DNA of 64,000 nt from a virus (Duplodnaviria > Heunggongvirae > Uroviricota > Caudoviricetes). This document shows, in pieces, positions 7,002 through 39,776 of this stretch. The stretch lies in the IMG/VR virus record IMGVR_UViG_2703718819_000007; one strand, 5' to 3'. How positions within the stretch are numbered: position 1 is the first letter of the stretch; each line of letters opens with the position of its first letter. The position numbers and the translations under genes were made by a program. The notes beneath the pieces were generated by a model. That model was not told where the DNA came from and ran no database searches. It was given only the letters and a program-made list of their open reading frames with translations.

Positions 7002-7026
7002 CCCGCTGTGATGGCGGGTTTTTTAT
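7002..7026 (+). terminator. Rho-independent terminator after lom
   Basis: cccgc-tgtgatg-gcggg hairpin followed by T-run. Confidence 0.6.
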
Positions 7027-7428
7027 TGCCCGTACAGGGCAAAAACCGTAAATTATGCGTGGGTGCCTTTCGGCTGATGGCTGGAGGGTGAACCTGAAGG
7101 CCTGATGTGGAAAGGCCCCGAGTCAACTTAACGTTAACCCGAGGCCCTAACACTTCGTACCTTGACAAGTAGAAGGTTAGCGCCTCTCCACTCAGGAGGC
7201 AAGCGCTATGTCGCAAAAATCGCTTATCACCGTCACAATTTGTATGACGGTTATCTTCACTATCTGGATGTTGCACGGTTCGCTGTGTGAGTTCCGGCTG
7301 AATTTGTGGGGAGCGGAGTTTGCGGCGTTCTTACAGTGTAAGCAGTAGGAAAACCGCGACGGGGACGAAAGTCCCCGTCAACTGGTTGCTGAGGTTCAGC
7401 CGATATGGCACCCGTTTCAGGTGAGAGA

Positions 7429-7806
7429 ATGAACGATAAAATTCTCCGGTATATGCAGCGTGTGGTGAGAAATTCCCGCAACCCTGAATTTATGAATGAA
7501 GTTAAAGACGCCTGCCTTAAAAAGCAGGCGTTTTGTTTTGAGGCACCTGATGGCTTTCTGGTGCTGCGTTCTGTGCTCAGTGCTGATGGTATCCCTTATG
7601 TTCTGGTGTTGCTGGGCGTGTGTACGGGGAGTAACAGCGTTGAGCGTTATCTGCCGGAGGTGAAGACATTAACCCGTCTGGCTGGCGGACGTTGGGCTGA
7701 ATTTCATACGGCAAGGCGGGGATTTATCCGGCTGGGAAAACGTCTGGGCTTTGAGCGAATGCCGGATGATGAGGATGGCTTCATGGTGTTCAGGATAGCG
7801 GTCTGA
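7429..7806 (+). CDS. Hypothetical protein (~125 aa)
   Basis: ORF bounded by terminators at 7002-7026 and 7860-7882. Confidence 0.4.
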   Translation: MNDKILRYMQRVVRNSRNPEFMNEVKDACLKKQAFCFEAPDGFLVLRSVLSADGIPYVLVLLGVCTGSNSVERYLPEVKTLTRLAGGRWAEFHTARRGFIRLGKRLGFERMPDDEDGFMVFRIAV

Positions 7807-24012: not shown

Positions 24013-26439
24013 TTAAACCTTTTCGATCTGGACAAGATTGCTGTGCGACGGGTTTCCCTTTGCCAGCGGTGAAGGGCGGTGAGAGGTCAGAATATTGATA
24101 CTGCCGCCGTGATCGACCCGGTCACCAAACATATCCGCTTTAAGCCACGCACCTTGCCCGATGGCGGTAACGCCAGGCAGAATACGCGGAGTCACTTTTG
24201 CGGCAATCAGCATTTCTCCATTATTGTTAAATACCCGCACGGTATCGCCATGACGGATACCGCGTGCCTGAGCATCAATGGGGTTGATCCACACCTCTTG
24301 TGGGCAGGCCTGCTGTAACACATCAATATTGCCGTAGCTGGAGTGGGTACGCGCTTTGTAGTGGAAGCCCGTTAACTGCAGTGGATAGGTTTTCCGCAGG
24401 GGATCGTCCCAGCCATCAAAACCTGGGGTATACGCAGGAAGGGGATGAATAATTTCATCTTTTTTCAATTCCCAGGTATCTGCAATCTTCGCCAGTCGTT
24501 CAGAATAAATTTCGATTTTCCCCGAAGGTGTTTTCAACGGGTTTGCCTGTGGATCTTCACGGAATGCGCGGAAAGCGACGTAGTGTTCTTCCGGGCATTT
24601 TTTCTTAAAGATCCCGGTCGTTTTCATCTCCTCGTAGTCGGGCATCTCAGGGTTACGTTCCTTCGTTTTCGCATGGAGATATTTGATCCATTCATGCTGA
24701 CTGCGACCTTCAGTAAAGGTTTGATAAACGTCTGGTCCTAAGCGTTTGGCGACTTCACTCAGCATCCAGTAGATGGGTTTGCGTTCAAATTTTGCTGAGG
24801 TTGCGGGTTGGGCGAGGATCACATAGCCCATATTCCCTGCAGATTCATGAGAGATAAGGTCTTCTTGCTCTGTTGGCATCAGGTCGGGCAACAGGATATC
24901 GCAATACTTAGCCGAGGCCGTCATGAAGTGGTCAATGCCAACAATCATCTCGCACTTGCTGTCATCCTGAAGCACCTCATGGGTGTGATTGATGTCGCCA
25001 TGTTGATTGATCAATGTGTTACTGGCGTAGCACCATAAAAACTTGATGGGGACATCCAGTTTTTCTTTTCCACGAACACCATCACGGGTCGCGGTCATTT
25101 CCGTACCATGGTCGATGGCATCTGTCCATGTAAAGACGGAAATCTGCGTTTTAACAGGATTCTCAAGCATCGGGAACCATTCTACCCCCAGATCCCAGCT
25201 ACCTTCGCGTACACCTGAGTTGCCGCCGTTTATGCCGACGTTACCGGTGAGAACGGAAAGCATGGCAATAGCGCGGGACGTTTGCTCGCCGTTGGAATGT
25301 CGTTGTGGCCCCCAACCCTGACAAATATAAGCAGGTTTTGCTGAACCGATCTCTCGTGCCAACTGGATAATTTTTTCTGCCGGGATGCTGGTGATTTTTG
25401 CTGCCCATTCCGGCGTTTTAGCTATGCCGTCAGGCCCTTCGCCCAGAATATAGGCTTTATAATGCGCGTTACGTGGTGCGTTGGCGGGCAGCGTTTTTTC
25501 ATCGTAACCAACACAATATTTGTCGAGAAATGGCTGATCGACCATGTTTTCAGTAATCAGTACCCAGGCAATCGCACAGGCCAGTGCGCCATCGGTGCCA
25601 GGGCGAATGGGCAGCCATTCATCTTCACGCCCGGCAGCAGTGTCGTTATAACGTGGATCGATGACGATCATGCGTGCGTTTGAACGTTCGCGGGCTTGCT
25701 CGACGTAGTAAGTGACACCACCGCCGCTCATCCGCGTTTCTGCCGGGTTATTTCCGAACATAACGACCAGTTTCGTATTGGCGATATCATCCGGGCTGTT
25801 GCCATCATTGGCACCGAACATATAACTCATTGCGGCACTGATCTGTGCGGTACTGTAGCTGCCATAGCGACTGAGAAAACCACCGCAAGAGTTCATCAGA
25901 CGGTACGGGACGTTTGAGTTGGTGATGTTTCCGCCATCTACGCCTGTTCCGTACAGGACATGTACAGCCTCATTGCCGTAATCTTTCAGGATCCGCCGAA
26001 GATTATCACTGATGGTATCCAGGGCTTCGTCCCAACTTATCCGTTCAAATTTACCTTCACCGCGCTTGCCGACGCGCTTCATGGGATATTTCAACCTATC
26101 AGGATGATTCATCCGTCGGCGGATAGAGCGCCCGCGTAAACACGCTCGAACCTGATGGTTACCGTAGACGTCGTCACCTGTCGTATCAGACTCCACCCAG
26201 TACACGGTGTCATCTTTCACATGCAAACGTAACAGACAGCGGCTCCCGCAGTTAACGGTGCAGGAACTCCAGACCGCTTTCTCTTCTACCGGAGCCTCTG
26301 CCGCCCGGACCATTTGGGAAAATGGCAGAGTGAAAGCACTGCTTGCCAGCGCAAGACTGCCAAGTGCGGAGGTTTTCATCAGACTTCTACGGCTGATTTC
26401 AGCCTTCATGAGCGCCTCTGTGGTATGGATTTTCATCAT
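24013..26439 (-). CDS. ynfF: DMSO-reductase-family molybdopterin oxidoreductase catalytic subunit YnfF (Tat signal)
   Basis: RRSLMKTSALGSLALA twin-arginine signal, CxxCxxxC Fe-S motif, 808 aa. Confidence 0.85.
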   Translation of the reverse strand: MMKIHTTEALMKAEISRRSLMKTSALGSLALASSAFTLPFSQMVRAAEAPVEEKAVWSSCTVNCGSRCLLRLHVKDDTVYWVESDTTGDDVYGNHQVRACLRGRSIRRRMNHPDRLKYPMKRVGKRGEGKFERISWDEALDTISDNLRRILKDYGNEAVHVLYGTGVDGGNITNSNVPYRLMNSCGGFLSRYGSYSTAQISAAMSYMFGANDGNSPDDIANTKLVVMFGNNPAETRMSGGGVTYYVEQARERSNARMIVIDPRYNDTAAGREDEWLPIRPGTDGALACAIAWVLITENMVDQPFLDKYCVGYDEKTLPANAPRNAHYKAYILGEGPDGIAKTPEWAAKITSIPAEKIIQLAREIGSAKPAYICQGWGPQRHSNGEQTSRAIAMLSVLTGNVGINGGNSGVREGSWDLGVEWFPMLENPVKTQISVFTWTDAIDHGTEMTATRDGVRGKEKLDVPIKFLWCYASNTLINQHGDINHTHEVLQDDSKCEMIVGIDHFMTASAKYCDILLPDLMPTEQEDLISHESAGNMGYVILAQPATSAKFERKPIYWMLSEVAKRLGPDVYQTFTEGRSQHEWIKYLHAKTKERNPEMPDYEEMKTTGIFKKKCPEEHYVAFRAFREDPQANPLKTPSGKIEIYSERLAKIADTWELKKDEIIHPLPAYTPGFDGWDDPLRKTYPLQLTGFHYKARTHSSYGNIDVLQQACPQEVWINPIDAQARGIRHGDTVRVFNNNGEMLIAAKVTPRILPGVTAIGQGAWLKADMFGDRVDHGGSINILTSHRPSPLAKGNPSHSNLVQIEKV

Positions 26440-26496: not shown

Positions 26497-27523
26497 TTAT
26501 ATTTTTTCGATCTCGACCAGATTAGTGTGCTGCGGGTTTCCCTTCGCCAGTGGTGAAGGGCGCAGAGTGGTTAGCGTATTCACACAGCCGCCATGGTCGA
26601 TTTTATCGCCAGACATATTGGCCTCGTGCCAGGCTCCCTGGCCCATAGCGCTAACTCCAGGGAGAATACGTGGTGTTACTTTGGCTGGTAGCCGAACTTC
26701 GCCACGATGGTTAAACACCCGCACCATATCGCCGTTGGCAATCCCACGTTTCTGCGCATCTATAGGGTTGATCCACACCTCCTGACGGCAGGCAGCCTTC
26801 AGGAGATCAATATTGCCGTAGGTCGAGTGAGTACGGGATTTGTAATGGAAACCAAACAGTTGCAGTGGGAAGGTTCTACGTTCAGGGGAGTCCCAGCCTT
26901 CAAAGGTAGAGGCATAAACTGGCAGTGGGCTTATCACTTCATCTTTTTCCAGTTCCCAGGTACGGGCAATTTCCGCCAGCTTGCTGGAATAAATTTCAAT
27001 CTTACCGGAAGGTGTTTTAAGTGGATTTGCCTCGGGGTCGTCACGAAATGCTTTGTAGGCGACAAAATGACCATTGGGATCTTTACGCTTATAGATACCC
27101 ATTTTTTTCAGTTCGTCGTAAGACGGTAACGCCGGATCTTTGGCAAGCATTTTGGCGTACAGATGTTGTAACCATTGTTCCTGCGTGCGACCTTCAGTGA
27201 ACTTTTGATAGACGTCAGGTCCAAGACGTTTCGCGACTTCACTCAGGATCCAGTAAATCGGTTTGCGTTCGAATTTTTCGCTGGTGACAGGCTGGAGGAA
27301 AATGAGATATCCCATGTTACCGGCGTAGTCGTTAGGAATAATATCTTCCTGCTCAACGGTCATCAGGTCTGGCAGCAGAATGTCGGCATATTTTGCCGAT
27401 GAGGTCATAAAGTTTTCGATGACCACAATCATTTCGCATTTCGATTCGTCCTGCAGAATTTCATGCGTTTTGTTGATGTCAGAATGCTGATTAACGAGGG
27501 TATTTCCCGCGTAGTTCCAGATG
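26497..27523 (-). pseudogene. ynfE: ynfE 3' (C-terminal) fragment, separated from its 5' part by the 6.7 kb insertion
   Basis: Translation ...ESIWNYAGNTLVNQHSDINKTHEILQDESKCEM... to ...VEIEKI paralogous to the YnfF C-terminus; upstream part of the ORF reads into element DNA. Confidence 0.8.
27513..27523. repeat. Left copy of 11-bp direct repeat agttccagatg (target duplication or att core)
   Basis: Identical 11-mer at 34224-34234; joining the flanks restores an in-frame ynfE (KFIWNYAGN). Confidence 0.75.
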
Positions 27524-27588
27524 GACTCCACTGTCAGACGGATGGACGGACTTGAAGTAGTTGACTCAACGCTACTTAAGGTCCTGAT

Positions 27589-29211
27589 ATGACTGACATT
27601 AACCATGACAATACTGTATATCCATCCAGTTCTTTCTCTGGGTCTCCCTATCTGTATCAGCAAGTCTACACCTCAAGTCCTGACACAAGGCTGACACAAA
27701 TCAACCTACTCGGCGTGGCTTGCTCGCTACTTGCTAAGCCTCAGTTAGTCCGTAGAGCCAATGGTCGATATACTATCCGCTTCAGACTCAAGGGACAGAC
27801 CATCCCGTTTCTTTCAGTATCGACCCGAAGCACAGACAGGAGAGTAGCCACAATGCGTCAGAGAGAGCTTGCAGCCACAGCTAAGTCCTTCATGTTGGAT
27901 AGGCCTGATGTCTCGCTACAGGAGCTTACAGAGCACCTCCGGTCTATGGCTGAGCAGTTCCTGACAGACGCTAGTGACGATTACTGGAATGGACTTGAGG
28001 TCGCTACTTTGGTGGACGAGAAGTCCAACCTGAAGGAGCTAGCCGCTACGCAAGCCTTAAGTCTGGACCAGCAGAAGGGCATAAGGTTAGCGCTTGAAGT
28101 CCTGACCGCAGCACAGCAGAGGGTAGACACTGGTGATACCTCTGGTCTGATTAAGCTGATTGATGATAATAACCATACTGATTACTCAACTATAGGCGAC
28201 TCTACGTCAATTCTGAAGAATGAGCAGGGGGATAGACCAGCAGTTTTCACACAGGAGCCCCAACCTGAGGTCACTATCGCTGACCAACCAGCTATCTGTA
28301 GTTTTTCTGAGCTAGTGTCCTCGCTGCTGGCTGAGAAGGTCCAGACCCTGAAGTCATCCAGCTACAAGGACCTGTCGTCCTCACTGAATACCGTCTCTCG
28401 GTTCTTACCTGAAGACATGGACCTGATGTCCCGCTCTGAGTGGCTGGCTGTCAGGGACGCTATGCTGGCTTCTGAGGTGAGACCGTCGACGATTAACAAG
28501 CTGCTGACTAAGGCGAAGATGTGTCTTGACTACGGTCTGATGAATGGGCAACTTGAGGGCCGCAACCCTATTGAACGGATGAAGCTGACCAAGGATATCG
28601 ACTCCAAGCGCAGAGCGTTCACAGACGAGGAGCTGGAGAGACTTCTGGTCCGTGTTGAGGCTGAGTATCAGTTCACACGACACACGGCTCACACGACCTC
28701 TGAGGCCCGTAGATGGGCGTCTCTGGTGTCTGTAGTTACTGGCGCTCGGTCTGCTGAGGTCTGCCACCTGACTAAACGTGACATTGTAACCTTAGACAAT
28801 GGACTGGTCTGTATCGACATCAACGAAGATGGGGACGGTAAGTCTGTGAAGAACAAGCATTCAGTCCGACTTGTGCCGTTGACCGATGGGGCCTGTGGTC
28901 TTGACCTGAAGTCCTTCCTCGAATGGGTAGACATGCAGCCTGACGAGGGTCCTCTCTTCGGGATGACTCCAAGCGCATACTCTAGCTGGTTTAACTCTAG
29001 GGTCCTGACTGAGGCCCTAGGAGACTCTCAGGATGTCTCTCTCCACAGTCTGAGGCATTGGCTGGCGACCCGCATGAAAGAGCGTGGAGTCAATCTGGTG
29101 GATGCTCAGGGCATCTTAGGCCATAGCAGTCAGTCCATTACGTATGACCTGTACGGGAAAGGACATGCAGTCCAGAGACTGGCTGAGGTGCTGAAGACAG
29201 CTTTACTTTAA
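27589..29211 (+). CDS. Tyrosine recombinase/phage integrase (start uncertain: ATG 27589, GTG 27715 or ATG 27853)
   Basis: C-terminal HSLRHWLAT...GHSSQSITYDLYG catalytic motifs (H-x-x-R, Y); N-terminal RYTIRFRLKGQ arm-binding-like motif. Confidence 0.85.
   Translation: MTDINHDNTVYPSSSFSGSPYLYQQVYTSSPDTRLTQINLLGVACSLLAKPQLVRRANGRYTIRFRLKGQTIPFLSVSTRSTDRRVATMRQRELAATAKSFMLDRPDVSLQELTEHLRSMAEQFLTDASDDYWNGLEVATLVDEKSNLKELAATQALSLDQQKGIRLALEVLTAAQQRVDTGDTSGLIKLIDDNNHTDYSTIGDSTSILKNEQGDRPAVFTQEPQPEVTIADQPAICSFSELVSSLLAEKVQTLKSSSYKDLSSSLNTVSRFLPEDMDLMSRSEWLAVRDAMLASEVRPSTINKLLTKAKMCLDYGLMNGQLEGRNPIERMKLTKDIDSKRRAFTDEELERLLVRVEAEYQFTRHTAHTTSEARRWASLVSVVTGARSAEVCHLTKRDIVTLDNGLVCIDINEDGDGKSVKNKHSVRLVPLTDGACGLDLKSFLEWVDMQPDEGPLFGMTPSAYSSWFNSRVLTEALGDSQDVSLHSLRHWLATRMKERGVNLVDAQGILGHSSQSITYDLYGKGHAVQRLAEVLKTALL
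27681..27700. repeat. Left arm-type repeats tgacacaagg-c-tgacacaaa
   Basis: Same 20-mer recurs at the right end (34136-34155) in direct orientation. Confidence 0.6.
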
Positions 29212-29218
29212 GTAGGAA

Positions 29219-29270
29219 GACCCAAGGTGGAGACCATATACGGCTTGATGGTTGAGACCTTGGGTCACTG
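29219..29270 (+). terminator. Long-stem hairpin after integrase stop; possible terminator or processing site
   Basis: gacccaagg ... ccttgggtc 9-bp inverted repeat. Confidence 0.35.
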
Positions 29271-29399
29271 AAGTCTGACTGAAGTTAGGGAGGGTGATAA
29301 TAATCATAATCCCTCCTGACTATAGGCCCACTGGTTCGCCTTCGGCTGTCCGACTCTAAGTCTGTCTGTGGTCTTATTTAAACTGCGTCCTAAACTCCA

Positions 29400-29650
29400 G
29401 TCCCTCCAAATTCCTATGGTCTCCTCTTGACATTCCTGTTTAACTGTGAGTCGCCTCTGGTCTCTCTTTATATATACTTCCTTAATTCCTGAGGCGTCTT
29501 TAGTCCTTGACATTCTGTCCAACCTGTGAGTCACATCCGGTCCTCCCTCTTTATATTTACTTCCTTAATTCCTAGGGTCGCCTTAATCCTTGACATCCAG
29601 TCCAGCCTGTGAGTCACATCCTGTCGCGCTACTGTATGCATCACCAGTGG
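29400..29650. repeat. Three tandem ~80-83 bp repeat units each containing TTGACAT and palindrome TGTGAGTCACA; candidate operator or iteron array
   Basis: TTGACA at 29427, 29507, 29590; cttccttaattcct and ctgtgagtcac recur with the same period. Confidence 0.65.
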
Positions 29651-29652
29651 TG

Positions 29653-29675
29653 GACTTGATTATCACTATAGGGGA
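29653..29675 (+). promoter_or_regulatory. T7-type single-subunit phage-RNAP promoter motif (tatcactatagggga)
   Basis: 12/12 match to T7 core TCACTATAGGGA (-8 to +4); 36 nt upstream of an RBS-preceded ORF. Confidence 0.6.
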
Positions 29676-29705
29676 ACCAACTAATTCAACGACAGGAGAT
29701 ACTCT

Positions 29706-30074
29706 ATGGCACGACCAATCGCAACTCACGACAACACGTTCACCAAAGCCTACTTGCAGCAGCACTGCGGGGACCTGCTGTCATTCGATGGTCAGGGTGA
29801 CTTGAGTGGCTGGCTGGATGATGTCCTTACTGGTGCTGGTCGCCTGAGCGAATCAATGGCAAGCAATACCAAGCCTGTCAGCCCATACTTGATTCTGACC
29901 CAACTACTAACGCACGACACATTAACTGTAAGCGCTGTGCAGGAGTCCCTGAGCCGTAAGCGTGTTGCCTTGGGTGAACCTATGGTTTCAACTCGCTACG
30001 CTCGCTACGTCTATTCTACGGTGGTCAGCGCCAGTAAATCCGTCAAGTACCACGCCAGTAAAGCTGGTTCATGA
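29706..30074 (+). CDS. Hypothetical protein (122 aa), first gene downstream of a T7-type promoter
   Basis: AGGAGA RBS 6 nt upstream of ATG. Confidence 0.6.
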   Translation: MARPIATHDNTFTKAYLQQHCGDLLSFDGQGDLSGWLDDVLTGAGRLSESMASNTKPVSPYLILTQLLTHDTLTVSAVQESLSRKRVALGEPMVSTRYARYVYSTVVSASKSVKYHASKAGS

Positions 30075-30095
30075 TAAAGGACCCTAAACTATCAC
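30073..30095 (+). promoter_or_regulatory. Second T7-type promoter motif (tatcactatagggaaga)
   Basis: Shares exact 13-mer tatcactataggg with 29660-29672. Confidence 0.6.
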
Positions 30096-30504
30096 TATAG
30101 GGAAGACCAACCTTGCCTCTGAGTCTGATGCGTCAGAACATGCGAGCATCTGGTCAACCGACATTAAGTATCTCTCCTAAGTAATCAAGGCCCGTGACCG
30201 CCTCTGTCAGACCTCCTGTATGACCTCCAGCTCGTTAGCGTTCTTTAGTCGTCTCGGTTAGTAGCTCGTCTACTCACTACATTGGCTTAAGTCTATCACC
30301 GCTCACCATCTGGAAGTCCTTACAGCTCGTCCTGACATGCGGTCGCACCTTTATACGTACATGGAGAACATGGTCACTCCAGACCGTCAACATTTAACCA
30401 TTCACTTTCGTTAAGCACTTTCTGATGGGTCCGTTTAGGATGCGTCTGAATGGTGCGGACTCCATGTGGAGACAGAAAGTGCTTTACCAAAGGAGCATCT
30501 TTGT

Positions 30505-31020
30505 ATGAATACCGAATTACCAGTAACTAACCGCCAGTTCTTAATCATCCTGCTGACCAATGCAGAGTCCAGTGTCGATTGCTGTCGCTATAACTTAGAC
30601 CTGCTGAAGTTATCCCGATGGTATGCCCAGGCGGAAGACTGGGACTATGAGAAAATCCGGGAGATGTACGCGGAGCCTATCCAGTCATACCTCCAGACAC
30701 ACACCGAGGAAGAGCTGAAGCGTGGCCTGCAGGACATCTTCTATTTCAACAATCCTTACACCTGTGAGGGTGACTCAGAAGAGATGGATTGGATAGCGTC
30801 ACGCTCTGATGCCGACTTGAAGCACATCTCTAACGCGATGATGCAGGTGGAGAGCAAATGGTCTCGCCGACTTCAGGTCCTAACTGAGGATTACGAAAAC
30901 GGCACCTTTGATAAGCTGGTCCCACCTGATACCGAACGTCTTCAGGCGAAAGCTGACCAAGAACAGCGCTTCAAGTCCTTTGCCGAAGCTCTGGCGGGAG
31001 GTGCCTCTTATGACTTCTGA
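30505..31020 (+). CDS. Hypothetical acidic protein (~171 aa)
   Basis: AAGGAG RBS 10 nt upstream of ATG 30505. Confidence 0.55.
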   Translation: MNTELPVTNRQFLIILLTNAESSVDCCRYNLDLLKLSRWYAQAEDWDYEKIREMYAEPIQSYLQTHTEEELKRGLQDIFYFNNPYTCEGDSEEMDWIASRSDADLKHISNAMMQVESKWSRRLQVLTEDYENGTFDKLVPPDTERLQAKADQEQRFKSFAEALAGGASYDF

Positions 31021-31504
31021 CAATAAGCAGGAATACACCATTCATATCTTCGGTCAGGACATCACCAGTCAGGACGGATTGTTTCGACTCGATGAAATTC
31101 GCCGGGTCGGCATTCAGATTGGCAAAGTAGAAGACACCGAGTCGACACAGTACAAGCGTTTTGCTCAGACCAAAGTTGGAAAGCTACTGAGGAATAGGCA
31201 GAAAATCCGCCTTATCCGAATGGGTGAACTCGGGTCTACCGTCCTTGCTGACCCCGCCGCTACTGTAGAGTTTGGTCGCTGGCTGGACTTTGAGTACGGA
31301 CTGGCAGTCTCTGAAGCCTTCGTGTCTATGACCTCCAGCGCCACCGTGCAGTCTGCTGTAGCGTCTGCTGAGGACATCAAGCCGGAGACCAAGGAATTCA
31401 TCCAGCGTCATGGCACAGGCCTCTACATCGCCGGACGTGAAGTCTCACAGGCTGAGTATTCAGACTATCAAGCTGTGACCGCTGGTCGCTGTGAGTGGAG
31501 GTAA
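31009..31504 (+). CDS. Hypothetical protein (~165 aa)
   Basis: ATG overlapping the upstream stop (translational coupling). Confidence 0.5.
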
Positions 31505-31510
31505 GTAATC

Positions 31511-31684
31511 ATGGCTATGATTGACCCACGCACACCTGAGGGCCGCATGACTCTCCGTTACCGTGGCTACCGGACTGAAGTCCTCCTCAGAGAGCTTGGT
31601 CTAGACCCGGAAGATGAGACCCGCCAGCACCAATCCCGAGACGAGCTGATAGCGCAACTGGTCGCTATGAAACTGTCTGCCTAA
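31511..31684 (+). CDS. Small hypothetical protein (57 aa)
   Basis: GGAGG RBS upstream of ATG; not in ORF track because <60 aa. Confidence 0.45.
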   Translation: MAMIDPRTPEGRMTLRYRGYRTEVLLRELGLDPEDETRQHQSRDELIAQLVAMKLSA

Positions 31685-31780
31685 TTTTAAAACCTTTTGA
31701 GATGACCGATGCGGGGAGACCCGTAGGCGCTACTGCGTCTGCGATACCGATAGTCTCAACTCTCAAGAGGAGAATTACCT

Positions 31781-32272
31781 ATGATGTTCAACAACAACAA
31801 CTGGAAGCTGTCAGTCACCGACATCAACCTTTATGAAAACACTGTGAGTCTGGACGGTCAGCCCTATCCGCTGTCGCTCGCTATCAAGACCCTCATTCCG
31901 GGCTACCTGTCAGGCCTGCCGTCTACCAGCCGCGAGGCAATGGAGTTACTGGAAGCTCTGGCTGAAGCTGGCGTAGCTATTGGCAACTTCTTCAGTAATG
32001 ACCTGATGACCGCCTATGGTCGCCGCCAGCTTAACAAACGAGCTGAGGCTGAGCGTATCGCTAAAGAGCTGGCATCTCAGAAAGAGCGTATGCGTGAAGA
32101 GAACATGACCGATGCAGAGTGGCAGAAAGAGCTACAGCGCCGCGAACAAGTCAAAGCTGAACGCCGGACCTATGGTGAGAACCTCCGCAGTGCAACCCAT
32201 TCCGCTGGTCGCTCCCGTGCCGCTATTGTCGCTGACCTTGAGTCAGGCGGTAACTGGCTGGACAGCTTATAA
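31781..32272 (+). CDS. Hypothetical protein with charged coiled-coil C-terminal half (163 aa); scaffold-like by position
   Basis: AGAGGAGA RBS; K/E/R-rich helical region; immediately precedes the 328-aa ORF. Confidence 0.5.
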   Translation: MMFNNNNWKLSVTDINLYENTVSLDGQPYPLSLAIKTLIPGYLSGLPSTSREAMELLEALAEAGVAIGNFFSNDLMTAYGRRQLNKRAEAERIAKELASQKERMREENMTDAEWQKELQRREQVKAERRTYGENLRSATHSAGRSRAAIVADLESGGNWLDSL

Positions 32273-32356
32273 GACACACAGTCCCTGACCCGATGTTAGG
32301 GACTCCTCAGTTTTGAGGACTCACAGTATTTAAACTAATTTAGGAGATTGATTATT

Positions 32357-33343
32357 ATGACGATTAAAGACGCTTTCCAGTTTGGCATTGAGCCAGTACG
32401 CATCACCGATACCGACAACATTCAGGTCAATGAAGGTCTGCCGACTAACGCTGACCCGCAGGTCTACGCCCTCCAGTTAGCTAAGACGGTTAAGGCTATG
32501 CTGAACGGTGTACTTAAGGACGCTCAAGAGAACATCCCGTTCCCTGTAGAAGTCCTGCCGACCCGTAACAGCTTACCGACCCCAATCATTGCCCACACTC
32601 TGGCTGACCGCTCTGTGGTCGTTCCTGTCCGTGGTGGCAAGCGACCTGAAGTCGTGACCATTCCGTCTGGACAAGAAATCGTGGTCGAACCAATCGAGCA
32701 GGCTATTCTCATCTCTGAGCAGACCACTCTCTGGGACGCCAAGTCATCCACCGGATTCACTCAGGGCACACTTCAGCAGGACGCTATGAACATCTGTGAG
32801 AATGTGGTCCGTACCATCAACGCTCACATGGTCGACGTTCTGGAATCCTCTAAGCTGCTGAAGACCGTAGAGCTTCCTGTCCTGACTGGTAGCCTGACCG
32901 CTAAGGCAGACGCTATCATGGACGCTCTGTATGAGAACACAGAGCCTTCTTTCGGTTCTGAGGTGTCTAACTACGGTATTATCGCTCATGAGAGCCAACT
33001 GAAAGCACTGTCCCGTCTGGCTGCTAAGCAAGGCTTCTCCGGTGAAGACGCTATCGTCGATATGCTGGGAACAGACATCGCCTACTACAACGGTGAAGAC
33101 AAGGGTGTATTCATGCTGGCTAAACGCTTCACGGCTCTGAGCTTCGGTTGCTTCCGTCACGATGGCGAGAATATTACGGTCGTCCTTTCACGTGATGGCG
33201 ACTCTCAGTCCCACGACTTGGAAATCCTCGGTAAAGTGTACGTTGTCGCTGAAGCTGCTACGACCATCAAGATGGGCACTGGCTCAGCTACTGCCGTCCT
33301 GCCTGTAGTCAAACGCCTGAAGTTCACCAAGACCGAAGCGTAA
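32357..33343 (+). CDS. Hypothetical 328-aa protein, largest non-integrase gene of the element; candidate structural (capsid-like) protein by context only
   Basis: AGGAGA RBS 8 nt upstream; leader tttaaactaatttaggagattgattattATG resembles the T7 gene-10 leader. Confidence 0.5.
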   Translation: MTIKDAFQFGIEPVRITDTDNIQVNEGLPTNADPQVYALQLAKTVKAMLNGVLKDAQENIPFPVEVLPTRNSLPTPIIAHTLADRSVVVPVRGGKRPEVVTIPSGQEIVVEPIEQAILISEQTTLWDAKSSTGFTQGTLQQDAMNICENVVRTINAHMVDVLESSKLLKTVELPVLTGSLTAKADAIMDALYENTEPSFGSEVSNYGIIAHESQLKALSRLAAKQGFSGEDAIVDMLGTDIAYYNGEDKGVFMLAKRFTALSFGCFRHDGENITVVLSRDGDSQSHDLEILGKVYVVAEAATTIKMGTGSATAVLPVVKRLKFTKTEA

Positions 33344-33348
33344 GACCA

Positions 33349-33588
33349 ATGGGTAAGAGCATTAGTAAAGGCTTCAGGTCCATCGCCAAGGGCCTGACAG
33401 GTGGTGGTGGGACTCAAGGTGGGGCTTCGGTCCCGCCTCCTGTAGCTCCTCCTGTAGCTCCTCCAGATGACGCTCAGCAAGCTGTAGTCGATACCCAAGG
33501 TCAGGAGACCGAGGGAGGTAAGACCATGAGCAGAGGTAAGTCTGGACTGAATATCAGCAGGACTTCAGGTGGTGGCCTGTCACTGTGA
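33349..33588 (+). CDS. Small Gly/Pro-rich protein (79 aa)
   Basis: ORF 5 nt after previous stop. Confidence 0.4.
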   Translation: MGKSISKGFRSIAKGLTGGGGTQGGASVPPPVAPPVAPPDDAQQAVVDTQGQETEGGKTMSRGKSGLNISRTSGGGLSL

Positions 33589-33826
33589 TTAAGACATCTA
33601 TACAGCCTGTGGAGGGTGGACGATATCAAGCAACAATCTGGATGACACGCAGAGTCTATAAGCGGCTATGCTGGTCACTGGCTGAAGCTGAACAGTGGGT
33701 GAGACGTAAAGTGCCTACCGTTCAATCGTTCCAATCATCATGATAACTATGGTCTGGACCAATGGTCTGGACCTTTGTTTTGTACTAGTTATCTAGTGCA
33801 GTAGTACAATAGACGAAGGAGGCTTT

Positions 33827-33982
33827 ATGTCCATGACTTCCGCAGACCTAAGGTCCCTCCTGACTCTGGTCTATAAACTCGTGCTCCTCTCTGTGGGTCT
33901 CTATATGGTCCTCTCCGGTCGACTCGGTGTGAATGTATTCGACACTCTGTCTAAGGCTGTGGGTGGGCTTCTGGGGGCTTAG
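33827..33982 (+). CDS. Small hydrophobic (single transmembrane) protein, 51 aa; holin-like by size only
   Basis: Strong AAGGAGG RBS; LVYKLVLLSVGLYMVLSG hydrophobic core. Confidence 0.4.
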   Translation: MSMTSADLRSLLTLVYKLVLLSVGLYMVLSGRLGVNVFDTLSKAVGGLLGA

Positions 33983-34135
33983 GTTTGGACTCACAGTGGG
34001 ACCGATGGTTTCTGACAGAAAAATGTGAATGACCATCTAATACATTAAGCCAGCAGACTTCTCCCCCATAGCCCCGCCTCAAGTCCAGACCGAGGCCACC
34101 GGGGTCCTGACCAGCCGTCTAGACATCCCGTCTAA

Positions 34136-34168
34136 TGACACAAGGCTGACACAAAGCCTGACACAAAG
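34136..34168. repeat. Right arm-type repeats: three copies of tgacacaa(g/a)g
   Basis: Direct repeats at 34136, 34147, 34159 matching the left-end 20-mer. Confidence 0.6.
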
Positions 34169-34223
34169 TCCTTGACTCAATGCAGGACCTCAGACCTACT
34201 AAGGGTCCGCTTCAAGTCCTTGA

Positions 34224-34234
34224 AGTTCCAGATG
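34224..34234. repeat. Right copy of 11-bp direct repeat agttccagatg
   Basis: Identical to 27513-27523. Confidence 0.75.
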
Positions 34235-35634
34235 AACTTAATGGGCACATCCAGTTTATCTTTGCCGCGGACGCCGTCGCGGATTGCCGTCATTTGCGGA
34301 CCATGATCGATAGCATCTGTCCAGCTGAAGCAGGAGATTGACATTTTGACCGGATTATCCAGCACCGGCAGGCGTTCTATGGTAATGGTATAGGTCGATT
34401 CACGCGCGCCACTATTTCCGCCGCTGATGCCGACATTGCCCGTCAAAATAGGTAACATAGCAATAGCGCGTGCAGTCAGTTCGCCGTTTGCCTGGCGTTG
34501 CGGCCCCCAGCCCTGGCAGATATAAGCGGGTTTTGCTGTGCCAATTTCACGCGCCAGTTTGATGATACGGTCTACCGGGATACCGGTAATTTGCGAAGCC
34601 CACTGCGGCGTTTTCGCTGTGTTATCATCACCTTCACCAAGAATATAGGCTTTATAGTGACTATTTTTGGGTGCATCTGCGGGTAAGGTTTTTTCGTCAT
34701 AGCCGACGCAGTATTTATCGAGAAAAGGTTGATCAACGAGATTTTCGTTAATCAATACCCAGGCAATACCCGCAACCAGCGCGGCATCGGTGCCCGGGCG
34801 AATAGGGAGCCATTCATCTTCACGACCAGCAGCCGTATCGGTATATCGCGGATCGATAGCAATCATTTTGGCGTTCGATTTCTCGCGCGCTTTTTCAAGA
34901 AGATAAGTGATGCCACCGCCGCTCATGCGGGTTTCTGCCGGGTTGTTACCAAACATCACGACCAGCTTGCTGTTTTCAATATCCGTGGTGCTGTTGCCAT
35001 CATTACTGCCGTAGGTGTAGGGCATGGCACAGGAAATTTGCGCGGTGCTGTAGGAGCCATACTGATTGAGTGAACCGCCGTAGCAGTTCATCAGGCGTTT
35101 GACCGCCGAGGCTGATGGCGAAGAGCGGGTCATATTGCCGCCAACGATCCCCGAAGAGTACTGAATATATACAGCCTCATTGCCATATTGTTCGACGGTT
35201 TTCTTCAGGCTACTGGCGATAGTATCCAGGGCTTCATCCCAGCTAATCCGTTCGAATTTGCCTTCGCCGCGTTTGCCCACGCGTTTCATTGGGTAATTCA
35301 AGCGATCGGGATGATTAATACGCCGACGGATGGATCGACCACGCAAACAGGCGCGTACTTGATGATTGCCATACTCGTCGCTGCCGGTGTTGTCAGTTTC
35401 CACCCAGGTGACTTCATTATCTTTAACATGTAGACGAAGTGCACAGCGGCTACCACAGTTGACGGAACAGGCACCCCAGATCACTTTTTCGCTGGCCTGT
35501 TGTACCGCTGCCGCTGCACTGCGCAGGGTGAACGGTAAAGAAAAACCGCCTGCAGCCAGCGCCAGAGAACCTATCGCGGTTGATTTAACGAGTGTTCTGC
35601 GGCTGATGCCCACCATTCGGTCATTTTTGGACAT
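34224..35634 (-). pseudogene. ynfE: ynfE 5' (N-terminal) fragment with Tat signal, interrupted by the element
   Basis: MSKNDRMVGISRRTLVKSTAIGSLALAAGG...; reading frame runs into element sequence and stops at 34177. Confidence 0.85.
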
Positions 35635-38561: not shown

Positions 38562-39776
38562 ATGAAGATCGTAAAGGCTGAAGTTTTTGTTACCTGTCCG
38601 GGGCGTAATTTCGTCACATTAAAAATCACCACTGAGGACGGTATTACGGGCCTTGGGGATGCCACCCTCAATGGACGTGAGCTTTCCGTGGCCTCTTATT
38701 TGCAGGATCACCTTTGTCCGCAGCTTATTGGTCGCGATGCGCACCGTATCGAAGATATCTGGCAGTTTTTCTATAAAGGTGCTTACTGGCGTCGCGGTCC
38801 GGTTACGATGTCGGCCATTTCAGCGGTTGATATGGCGCTGTGGGATATTAAAGCCAAAGCTGCCAACATGCCGCTTTACCAGTTACTCGGCGGCGCGTCT
38901 CGTGAAGGGGTGATGGTTTATTGCCATACCACCGGTCACAGTATTGATGAAGCTCTGGATGATTATGCCCGTCATCAGGAGCTGGGATTCAAAGCCATCC
39001 GCGTGCAGTGCGGAATCCCTGGTATGAAAACCACCTACGGCATGTCGAAAGGTAAAGGTCTGGCTTATGAACCCGCAACCAAAGGACAGTGGCCGGAAGA
39101 GCAGTTGTGGTCGACGGAGAAATACCTCGATTTCATGCCGAAATTGTTTGACGCGGTACGTAACAAGTTTGGTTTTAATGAACATTTGCTGCATGACATG
39201 CACCATCGCTTAACGCCTATTGAAGCGGCGCGCTTTGGTAAAAGCATTGAAGATTATCGCATGTTCTGGATGGAAGACCCGACGCTTGCAGAAAACCAGG
39301 AATGCTTCCGTCTCATTCGCCAACATACCGTCACACCCATCGCAGTGGGTGAAGTCTTCAACAGCATCTGGGACTGCAAACAACTGATTGAAGAGCAACT
39401 CATCGATTATATCCGCACCACGCTGACCCATGCAGGCGGAATTACCGGTATGCGCCGGATTGCCGATTTTGCTTCGCTGTATCAGGTACGTACTGGCTCA
39501 CACGGTCCTTCCGATTTGTCACCAGTCTGCATGGCTGCAGCGCTGCACTTTGATCTGTGGGTCCCCAATTTCGGTGTCCAGGAATACATGGGTTATTCCG
39601 AACAAATGCTCGAAGTCTTCCCGCACAACTGGACTTTCGATAACGGCTATATGCATCCGGGAGACAAACCGGGTCTTGGCATCGAATTCGATGAAAAGCT
39701 GGCGGCGAAATATCCCTATGAACCTGCTTATCTACCAGTCGCACGTCTGGAAGATGGCACGCTGTGGAACTGGTAA
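38562..39776 (+). CDS. rspA: Starvation-sensing protein RspA (enolase superfamily, mannonate dehydratase-like)
   Basis: [38 protein letters not shown]... Confidence 0.9.

Follow-up and report, generated by a model that had tools for sequence, protein, structure and literature searches.

The 64,000-nucleotide viral record IMGVR_UViG_2703718819_000007 (the whole stretch analysed, hereafter the window, to whose first letter the positions given below refer) contains an element of 6,711 bp, here called the ynfE element, which carries an integrase gene and interrupts the host gene ynfE. Its comparison with phage and bacterial genomes indicates that it is probably an integrated, helper-dependent satellite of virulent K1F-like (Kayfunavirus) phages of the T7 group. 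The original prediction, made from the letters of the window, was that of a satellite or miniature derivative reliant on a T7-like helper phage. At the level of sequence, this idea is supported by phage-type promoters, composition, a homolog of the phage protein gp7.3, ends that imitate the concatemer junction of the helper, a capsid gene and a constant size. A helper of the T7 group can be retained from that prediction, while the helper appears to be K1F-like, T7 itself being unlikely in view of promoter positions -12 to -9.

Relatives of the element, to which reference is made throughout, use at least four attachment (att) sites: ynfE, the homologous position of another dmsA-family gene, a paralog (L016, with the 16-bp core TAGTTCAGATTGAACT), the 3' end of tRNA-Gly(CCC) (L008, L011 and L017, the tRNA-Gly lineage) and a site upstream of dps (L019, a diverged element). 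Across lineages and att sites, the relatives are all 6.45-6.8 kb long and GATC-poor, and carry phage-type promoters as well as the left-end motif described below.

Signals and genes shared with K1F-like phages

A position weight matrix (PWM) was built from 11 annotated promoters of the phage EcoDS1, and both strands of the window (128,000 positions) were scanned with it. Two sites only were retrieved, both on the + strand and both of the type recognized by the RNA polymerase of K1F: phi-a (ACTTGATTATCACTATAGGGGAA, 29654-29676, +1 at 29671, 24.1 bits), located before orf2, and phi-b (CCTAAACTATCACTATAGGGAAG, 30083-30105, +1 at 30100, 34.0 bits), located before orf3-orf10. The next best site scored 12.9 bits, and the promoters of EcoDS1 itself score 27-38 bits on the same matrix. 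Absence of such motifs from homologous elements had been named as a reason to abandon the original prediction; instead, five diverged E. coli relatives have kept both the location and the sequence of phi-a and phi-b. Both sites agree with the T7 consensus at positions -7 to +6 and depart from it at -12 to -9, which are the positions that set polymerase specificity, as established by work on T7 and T3. Because of this difference the motifs are of the K1F type, so that of the two T7-type promoters originally proposed the number holds and the type does not. Judging from these letters, T7 itself is unlikely to be the helper, and a K1F-like phage is likely.

A 31-nt query around phi-b, in the version carried by the relatives, found matches in 808 phage records. 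A 25-nt stretch of the relatives' phi-b, CTAAACTATCACTATAGGGAGACCA, is 100% identical in K1F, EcoDS1, CR44b, SH3, Dev2 and many other Kayfunavirus phages, whose genomes contain 8-11 copies each (ten sites in K1F). The matched EcoDS1 copy is the promoter directly 5' of gene 10A, the major capsid gene; in K1F, CR44b and SH3, too, an identical copy precedes the gene for the capsid protein, and the 59 nt around phi-a are 75% identical to the region 5' of EcoDS1 gene 10.

Other promoter types were found in more distant relatives. L008, from Salmonella Typhi, has two tandem promoter pairs (7018-7080 and 7579-7640 of that sequence), in which promoters with different specificity regions lie 27 nt apart, ATACCCTCACTATAGGGAA (T3/T7-like) being followed by CTTAGCTATCACTATAGGGAGA (K1F-like). 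This arrangement suggests that one satellite may answer two different helper RNA polymerases; no phage genus could be assigned to the second S. Typhi promoter type. L019 has two or three copies of a third type, TAAACCCCGACTATAGAGAG. A distinct promoter in a relative whose capsid protein is 32% identical is as expected if promoters follow the local helper, and a helper with the matching promoter was not found in INPHARED or IMG/VR.

The composition of the element points in the same direction. As originally claimed, it contains no GATC at all, against 20.7 sites expected from a Markov model; this is the sole 4-bp palindrome eliminated from the element, and 200 such sites are present in the 57 kb of its flanks. 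Similarly, GATC is scarce in EcoDS1 (13 observed vs 136 expected) and in K1F (13 vs 143). The profile of tetranucleotide over- and under-representation of the element correlates with that of EcoDS1 at r=0.82, and with that of its own host flanks at r=0.28; in the controls, host chunks gave values of 0.18-0.47 vs the phage and of 0.72-0.80 vs the host, and phage chunks values of 0.63-0.78 vs the element. GATC avoidance and tetranucleotide profile thus suggest that the element shares the evolutionary regime of K1F-like phages. When the element was compared by blastn and tblastn with 50,697 phage records, no match beyond short signals was obtained, and the same searches gave no match for Orf6, Orf7 or Orf8.

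Both ends of the element resemble the ends of the phage genome. Positions 33987-34097 (+ strand), which we regard as a mimic of the pre-terminal-repeat/left-end region and as a candidate pac site, are 68% identical over 117 nt to EcoDS1 39025-39135, an interval that spans the start of the 178-bp terminal repeat (TR), that is the mature left end. The cut is predicted before T34036, between ...GTGAATGACCA and TCTAATAC...CCCCATAGCCC. In the phages the corresponding boundary separates ...ACGATGAGTTTTGGACCAAAAGTTTGAGACCACA from TCTCACAG...CCCCATAGGCCC, and in the elements ...ACGATGAGTTTTTGACTGAAAAATGTGAGAGACCA from TCTAATAC...CCCCATAGCCC. Searched as a regular expression in elements and phages, the composite left-end motif gave one match per element, always in the right-hand non-coding end, and one match per phage, exactly at the pre-TR/TR boundary; it is kept in the E. 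coli, Salmonella, Enterobacter and Yersinia elements and in L019.

At the opposite end, a candidate right half of a T7-type concatemer junction, CCAGTTCTTTCTCTGGGTCTCCCT followed by ATCTGTATCAGCAAGTC, is located at 27626-27666 (+ strand), with a predicted cut or RNA polymerase pause before position 27650. These letters match the right boundary of the K1F terminal repeat, ...TCTCTGAGTCTC followed by TATCTGTATCAGACC, and in EcoDS1 the same ATCTGT site is annotated as 'concatemeric junction'. ATCTGT is the class II pause signal of T7-type RNA polymerases, which has been implicated in concatemer maturation. The distance of the motif from attL, the left-hand att core, is +126/127 nt in all ynfE-type copies, +112 in L016 and +93 in L019, where the motif lies in a different reading frame, which argues for conservation at the DNA level. 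If both halves are functional, excision would be needed to bring them together into a full junction, with an implied terminal repeat that spans attP and measures 323-325 bp in the ynfE lineage and 320 bp in L019; this length is near-constant, although the capsid proteins of the two lineages share only 32% identity. A shorter terminal repeat (~186 bp, from a MAFFT alignment) ending just before the att core was considered and dropped, because the ATCTGT match at 27650 is much better.

The element also brings virion proteins of its own, which had gone unrecognized in the original prediction and emerged from structure prediction and family searches. On the evidence of its structure model, Orf7 (328 aa; 32357-33343, + strand) is a major capsid protein of the HK97 fold. 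It has no match in Pfam, PHROGs or NCBIfam, a search of its family profile against PDB sequences was also empty, and no capsid family of Pfam or PHROGs was matched by any member of the family. A first AlphaFold2 model, obtained from a shallow alignment, was unusable, with a predicted local distance difference test score (pLDDT) of 39.7. An exhaustive profile search retrieved 64 distant homologs, and the model computed from a 36-sequence alignment reached a pLDDT of 84.9 and a predicted template modelling score of 0.79; Foldseek comparison of this model with viral models led to capsid proteins. One distant homolog has a C-terminal Big_2 domain, a type of domain frequent on phage surface proteins. 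Homology of Orf7 to gp10 of the helper was rejected (hhalign probability ~0.1%). Since its family is unrelated in sequence to gp10, orf7 did not arise by decay of the phage gene. The possibility of an encapsulin was also dropped, as orf7 lacks the setting of an encapsulin gene, namely a cellular operon in which the HK97-fold shell gene adjoins that of a cargo enzyme bearing a targeting peptide.

The conserved partner of the capsid gene is orf6 (163 aa; 31781-32272, + strand), which in all relatives is found directly 5' of it, including L019, where Orf6 is 26% and the capsid protein 32% identical. Orf6 consists of a conserved N-terminal domain, a charged helical middle part and a conserved C-terminus; its position and composition suggest a putative scaffolding or assembly role. 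No similarity to gp9 of the helper was detected (hhalign probability ~0.1%), and homology to that protein was rejected. Downstream of the capsid gene, orf8 (79 aa; 33349-33588, + strand) encodes a homolog of the T7-group virion/adsorption protein gp7.3, matching phrog_1320 (1.8e-11), which is labelled 'host range and adsorption protein', and, weakly, PF11653; over its full length it is 38% identical to gp7.3 of EcoDS1.

Gene set, integration site and distribution

The tyrosine integrase followed by eight to ten small genes on one strand, as originally described, is borne out by the annotation. The integrase (540 aa as the longest open reading frame, ORF; 27589-29211, + strand) matches PF00589 (1.7e-14) and phrog_1 (4.7e-43), and the nine ORFs downstream of it are all co-directional. 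The long int ORF is intact in all relatives (527-547 aa). Its start is called differently by annotators (429-540 aa), so that the true N-terminus of Int is uncertain. Both the junction-like motif and an arm-type repeat fall within the first ~90 codons (27589-27850), a stretch in which the relatives differ by in-frame indels. The repeat, TGACACAAGGCTGACACAAA, is a probable arm-binding site of the integrase, present as an exact 20-nt direct repeat on both arms (27681-27700 and 34136-34155, + strand); the diverged element L019 has GACACAAGG-type repeats on both arms.

The remaining genes, all on the + strand, are small and mostly devoid of recognizable families. Orf2 (122 aa; 29706-30074) matches phrog_23123, of unknown function (9.8e-9), and by tblastn weakly matches only hypothetical proteins of unrelated virulent phages. 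Two genes without family match, orf3 (171 aa; 30505-31020) and orf4 (164 aa; 31010-31504), form a variable module, the slot of which is occupied in relatives by KilA-N, Rha or AP2-domain genes instead. No family match was found for orf5 (57 aa; 31511-31684, from the ORF listing) or for the basic Orf9 (52 aa; 33585-33743), which, judged by eye, is possibly a small DNA-binding protein. Orf10 (51 aa; 33827-33982, from the ORF listing) is hydrophobic, with one predicted membrane helix.

In agreement with the original claim that RNA polymerase, terminase, DNA polymerase and any recognizable replication initiator are missing, searches of Pfam, PHROGs, NCBIfam and PADLOC found no RNA polymerase, DNA polymerase, terminase, portal, primase or Rep gene in the element, and no tail genes were found with Pfam, PHROGs and NCBIfam. 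PADLOC detected no defence system in the copy of the window. The generic traits of a phage satellite can be described for the ynfE element as follows: it is mobile and integrated, encodes an integrase and is bounded by precise att sites, it is devoid of the genes for autonomous virion production and replication, and its sequence displays helper-specific signals, namely K1F-type promoters and imitations of both halves of the concatemer junction.

The splitting of ynfE by 6711 bp, also part of the original prediction, is confirmed. The 3' part of the gene (26497-27523, - strand) and the 5' part (34224-35634, - strand), both from the ORF listing, are joined upon removal of the 6,711 bp into a stop-free ORF encoding an 808-aa YnfE. 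The attL (27513-27523, + strand) and attR (34224-34234, + strand) cores are exact 11-bp direct repeats of each other, AGTTCCAGATG, with the same letters in five other E. coli copies. The restored YnfE is 70% identical to the adjacent intact paralog YnfF. The two genes are tandem paralogs (ynfF 24013-26439; ynfE 26497-35634), of which the element interrupts only ynfE, and the intact ynfF may account for the tolerance of an intragenic att site. In another copy (L002 1-1008, E. coli 47-1826) the 3' fragment of ynfE beside the element is truncated and adjoins phage tail protein genes, which indicates a second prophage-related rearrangement at the same locus.

Three non-coding features deserve mention. 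Three tandem ~80-bp repeats (29426-29625, + strand) contain TTGACAT, a palindrome (CTGTGAGTCAC / GTGAGTCAC) and an AT-rich tract. They are present in 2-3 copies in other ynfE-type elements and absent in L004, in the tRNA-Gly lineage and in L019; operator, iteron or origin are tentative candidate roles. As sigma-70 promoters they are unconvincing. The TTGACAT repeats were also considered as analogues of the host promoters A1-A3 of T7, and discarded in that role because acceptable -10 boxes are missing and the copy number varies. The predicted phi-b transcript would begin with a structured untranslated leader of 405 nt (30100-30504, + strand; minimum free energy z-score -3.86 vs shuffles), in which 30405-30424 and 30473-30492 form an inverted repeat of 20 nt; a comparison with Rfam gave no family, and the leader may be an RNase III processing site, a regulatory RNA or an origin. 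Finally, 22 of 24 nt in the hairpin-forming GGTGATAATAATCATAATCCCTCC (29288-29318) are the same as in EcoDS1 38634-38657, a segment that sits between the rightmost phage promoter and gene 19.5.

As to distribution, the original prediction suggested a search for the same element in other genomes, and this was successful at ynfE as well as in other genera and att sites. Matches were found in 313 of 5,426 complete E. coli genomes (about 6%), all chromosomal, the top matches being all in ynfE. Homologs of Orf6 are spread over the Enterobacterales; those of Orf6 and of the capsid protein were found in Shigella, Citrobacter, Salmonella (including Typhi), Enterobacter hormaechei, Yersinia, Kluyvera, Rouxiella and Photorhabdus. 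Many copies contain insertion sequences (ISCro1/IS66, IS3, IS421, IS1203, ISSen4; e.g. NZ_CP042350, NZ_CP097719, NZ_CM129855, NZ_LS483296), and a fraction of the copies is therefore probably inactivated. In the tRNA-Gly lineage (L008 6341-7006; L017 1765-2418; L011 6206-6814) an additional gene directly follows int. Its product is either a DUF4145 protein (3e-13) or one of 202 aa with weak similarity to HEPN_RiboL-PSP; the position is probably a slot for anti-phage cargo. The non-coding tandem repeats occupy this position in the copy of the window.

Proposed cycle and alternative explanations

The features described above can be arranged in a cycle, each functional step of which we infer. The element would lie silent in ynfE, the paralog ynfF being intact. 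Upon infection by a K1F-like phage, the single-subunit RNA polymerase of the phage would fire phi-a and phi-b and switch on orf2-orf10, so that the helper polymerase itself would be the induction signal. The integrase would excise the 6,711-bp unit, and circularization would join the left-end mimic to the right-end mimic across attP, creating a full T7-type concatemer junction with a ~325-bp terminal repeat, which would be absent as long as the element is integrated. The replication machinery of the helper would then produce concatemers of the element; helper replication is proposed because the element has no replication protein and shares the GATC-free, T7-like composition. The helper terminase (gp18/gp19) would cut and package units of ~7 kb, for which Orf7, probably with Orf6 as scaffold, would build or redirect a small ~7-kb shell on the helper portal, and the gp7.3 homolog of the element would complete the infectious particle together with tail and core proteins of the helper. 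In a new cell, the linear DNA would have a T7-like map (TR-int-...-late genes-TR), so that int would enter first and integrate the element at ynfE.

It should be noted that, with a capsid protein of its own, the element would not depend purely on the helper for its structural components. From an estimate of DNA volume, ~7 kb need a shell of ~30 nm inner diameter, which, speculatively, is compatible with an HK97-fold shell of T=3 size. The small-capsid and split-junction details are held with lower confidence than the satellite nature of the element. The full proposal, that is the first satellite family of T7-group phages, induced in a hitherto undescribed way by direct transcription from the helper RNA polymerase, with neither repressor nor antirepressor, with a junction split and restored via attP and a shell of its own (capsid protein and partner, ~7-kb head, possibly T=3, on a foreign portal), is possible and is advanced here tentatively.

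Several points weigh against the cycle as drawn. As long as the element is integrated, int precedes phi-a and phi-b, an arrangement that does not account for the triggering of excision, and no excisionase was recognized in the element. T7-group phages degrade host DNA quickly, and an integrated element would have to leave the chromosome within a short time. The similarity at the left end is modest (E 8e-4 vs a single phage genome). In the ynfE lineage the right-end motif falls within the beginning of the long int ORF, which is always intact, and the tRNA-Gly lineage has no such motif. Assembly on the helper portal would be required of a foreign capsid protein, and both the formation of a small capsid and the role of Orf6 are things that we purely infer. 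No free, virion-derived, circular or direct-terminal-repeat-bounded copy was found in IMG/VR or among Logan metagenome contigs. The IMG/VR matches were rejected as free copies because they are prophage calls in isolate genomes; the element-sized Logan contigs (6,661-6,794 bp) end at att cores with host flank, and are therefore assembly-graph bubbles.

The want of free copies would suit the main alternative, which we nevertheless consider unlikely: an infection-sensing defence island, itself untransferred, whose promoters would act as a tripwire, whose decoy structural proteins, namely a foreign capsid protein and an imitation of gp7.3, and small effectors would poison helper assembly, and whose pac-like DNA would titrate the terminase. 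The promoter logic suits a sensor equally well; DUF4145 or HEPN-like genes follow int in relatives, and the exchangeable KilA-N/Rha/AP2 module is typical of phage-interaction hotspots. However, the copy of the window has no PADLOC match, and a pure defence island would have no need for a split junction, an implied TR of ~322 bp, a constant size of ~6.5 kb and a phage-like composition. Moreover, interference and transfer are compatible, and known satellites do both. Somewhat less probable again is a satellite that travels in normal helper capsids as head-full concatemers of about six units (~40 kb), with orf7 coding for an interference or decoy protein. Plasmids with a T7 junction have been reported to be packaged as concatemers. 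The sizes would fit, as six units of 6.5-6.8 kb give 39-41 kb vs 39.3-39.7 kb for the helper genomes, and minimal marine satellites travel in this way (PMC9618062; PMC10803314). On the other hand, the capsid gene and orf6 are kept in every lineage, including the most diverged, which such a mode of transfer would hardly explain, and T7-type packaging cuts at junctions, of which there would be one every 6.7 kb.

We give very little credit to the idea that the element is what is left of a complete temperate T7-like prophage, now decayed and inert. Its T7-like composition, its promoters and its end sequences would then all be inherited, and integrase-bearing T7-like phages are described from other hosts, for example LUZ100. 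Nevertheless, every ORF is intact, and the compact layout of 6.45-6.8 kb is met again in hundreds of genomes, in several genera and at four or more att sites. No fragments of RNA polymerase, DNA polymerase, portal, tail or terminase genes are seen despite the modular variation, Orf7 has no sequence relationship to gp10 of T7-group phages, nor Orf6 to their gp9, and the 50,697 phage records hold no match beyond the short signals. An ordinary integrative island with coincidentally phage-like motifs can be set aside almost entirely. Most ORFs are unannotated, as such an island would allow, but the two promoters score 11-21 bits above the best background among 128,000 positions, the motifs are conserved in relatives, GATC is found 0 times vs 21 expected, and each element and each phage has a single copy of the composite end motif, located in the phages where the terminal repeat begins. 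A chance origin of the phage-like motifs is effectively refuted. The satellite of K1F-like phages remains, in our opinion, the probable identity of the ynfE element.

Relation to known systems and significance

Among known satellites, the cf-PICIs described by Alqurainy and colleagues in 2023 resemble the element in having a major capsid protein of their own. They are said to measure ~10-15 kb, to carry a full head and packaging module, to take only tails from the helper and to depend on temperate siphophages. The cf-PICI head module (e.g. that of EcCI2 of E. coli) comprises portal, protease/scaffold, terminase and connectors. In contrast, the ynfE element, with 6.7 kb and nine small ORFs after int, has no portal, prohead protease, terminase or head-tail connector, and its proposed helper is a virulent podophage, with induction via promoters for the helper RNA polymerase. 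P4-like satellites share with it the integrase and hosts among the Enterobacterales (E. coli and relatives). P4 exploits the late transcription and the packaging site of its helper, a temperate myophage (P2); it is 11.6 kb long, has a primase-helicase, Sid/Psu and Delta, and uses the helper capsid protein and cos site. The PLEs of Vibrio cholerae, whose helper is the virulent ICP1, are also chromosomal satellites that are activated by infection and depend on replication and virion proteins of the helper. PLEs are about 18 kb long, with a serine recombinase, their own replication initiator and capsid-size scaffold, and the capsid protein of the helper; they have no gene in common with the ynfE element. 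Hallmark genes of P4 (alpha primase, sid, psu, delta), PICI (alpA, pri-rep, terS/capsid-redirection) and PLE (serine recombinase, RepA) were all sought in Pfam, PHROGs and NCBIfam, and none was found.

In size (about 5-7 kb), integrase and minimal gene content, the element is similar to two groups of very small marine satellites, VEIMEs and PICMIs, of which the PICMIs depend on virulent phages. Members of both groups have no capsid or capsid-remodelling genes, possess replication functions such as primase and AlpA, and travel as concatemers in helper-sized capsids (PMC9618062; PMC10803314). The ynfE element differs from both in having a capsid gene, promoters for a phage RNA polymerase and mimics of a T7-type junction, and in having neither primase nor AlpA. 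Overall, it resembles a cf-PICI (own shell) crossed with a PICMI or PLE (minimal, virulent helper), and fails to show the defining gene content of each.

Compared with the Kayfunavirus phages K1F and EcoDS1, it has in common with them the promoter consensus, GATC avoidance, the tetranucleotide signature, the gp7.3 homolog, both end sequences and the one-strand, early-to-late gene order. These phages are, however, ~39-40 kb long, virulent and without integrase, and have their own RNA polymerase, replisome, portal, gp9/gp10, tail, core and terminase. Phage-specific promoters, GATC scarcity and conserved ends (with a terminal repeat suggested by the junction mimics) are T7-group features of the element, which nevertheless, having no gene for a single-subunit RNA polymerase, does not belong to the T7-group phages.

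The full-text literature searched, which does not extend to subscription-only papers, contains no report of satellites that depend on T7, K1F or Autographiviridae coliphages. The sole trace is in the TIGER catalogue (Mageeney et al. 2020, PMC7192596), which lists Eco892.7.ynfE and Sfl13.8.ynfE, of 7-8 kb, as interrupting ynfE in E. coli and Shigella flexneri. These are almost certainly the same element family; the entries are anonymous, placed under 'regulated gene integrity', and report no phage-type promoters, capsid gene or satellite nature (PMC7192596). The original statement that no satellite family of this architecture had been described is consistent with this outcome, and the elements effectively represent a new family among phage satellites.

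T7-group phages, which among the virulent phages of E. coli have been studied best, are, according to the textbook, strictly lytic; they are workhorses of biotechnology and frequent candidates for phage therapy. If the proposed interpretation is correct, about 6% of sequenced E. coli, as well as Salmonella Typhi, Enterobacter, Citrobacter, Shigella and Yersinia, harbour an element that K1F-like therapeutic phages may mobilize and that may interfere with them, and virulent podophages would drive specific horizontal transfer in enterobacteria. The promoter for the helper RNA polymerase would be the simplest infection switch yet proposed for a satellite, and a possible part for synthetic biology, while a two-gene capsid module acting on a heterologous portal would provide a compact model of capsid-size determination and possibly a 7-kb delivery vehicle. 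Finally, the exchangeable cargo slots with DUF4145 or HEPN-like genes in the relatives would suggest a new defence hotspot.

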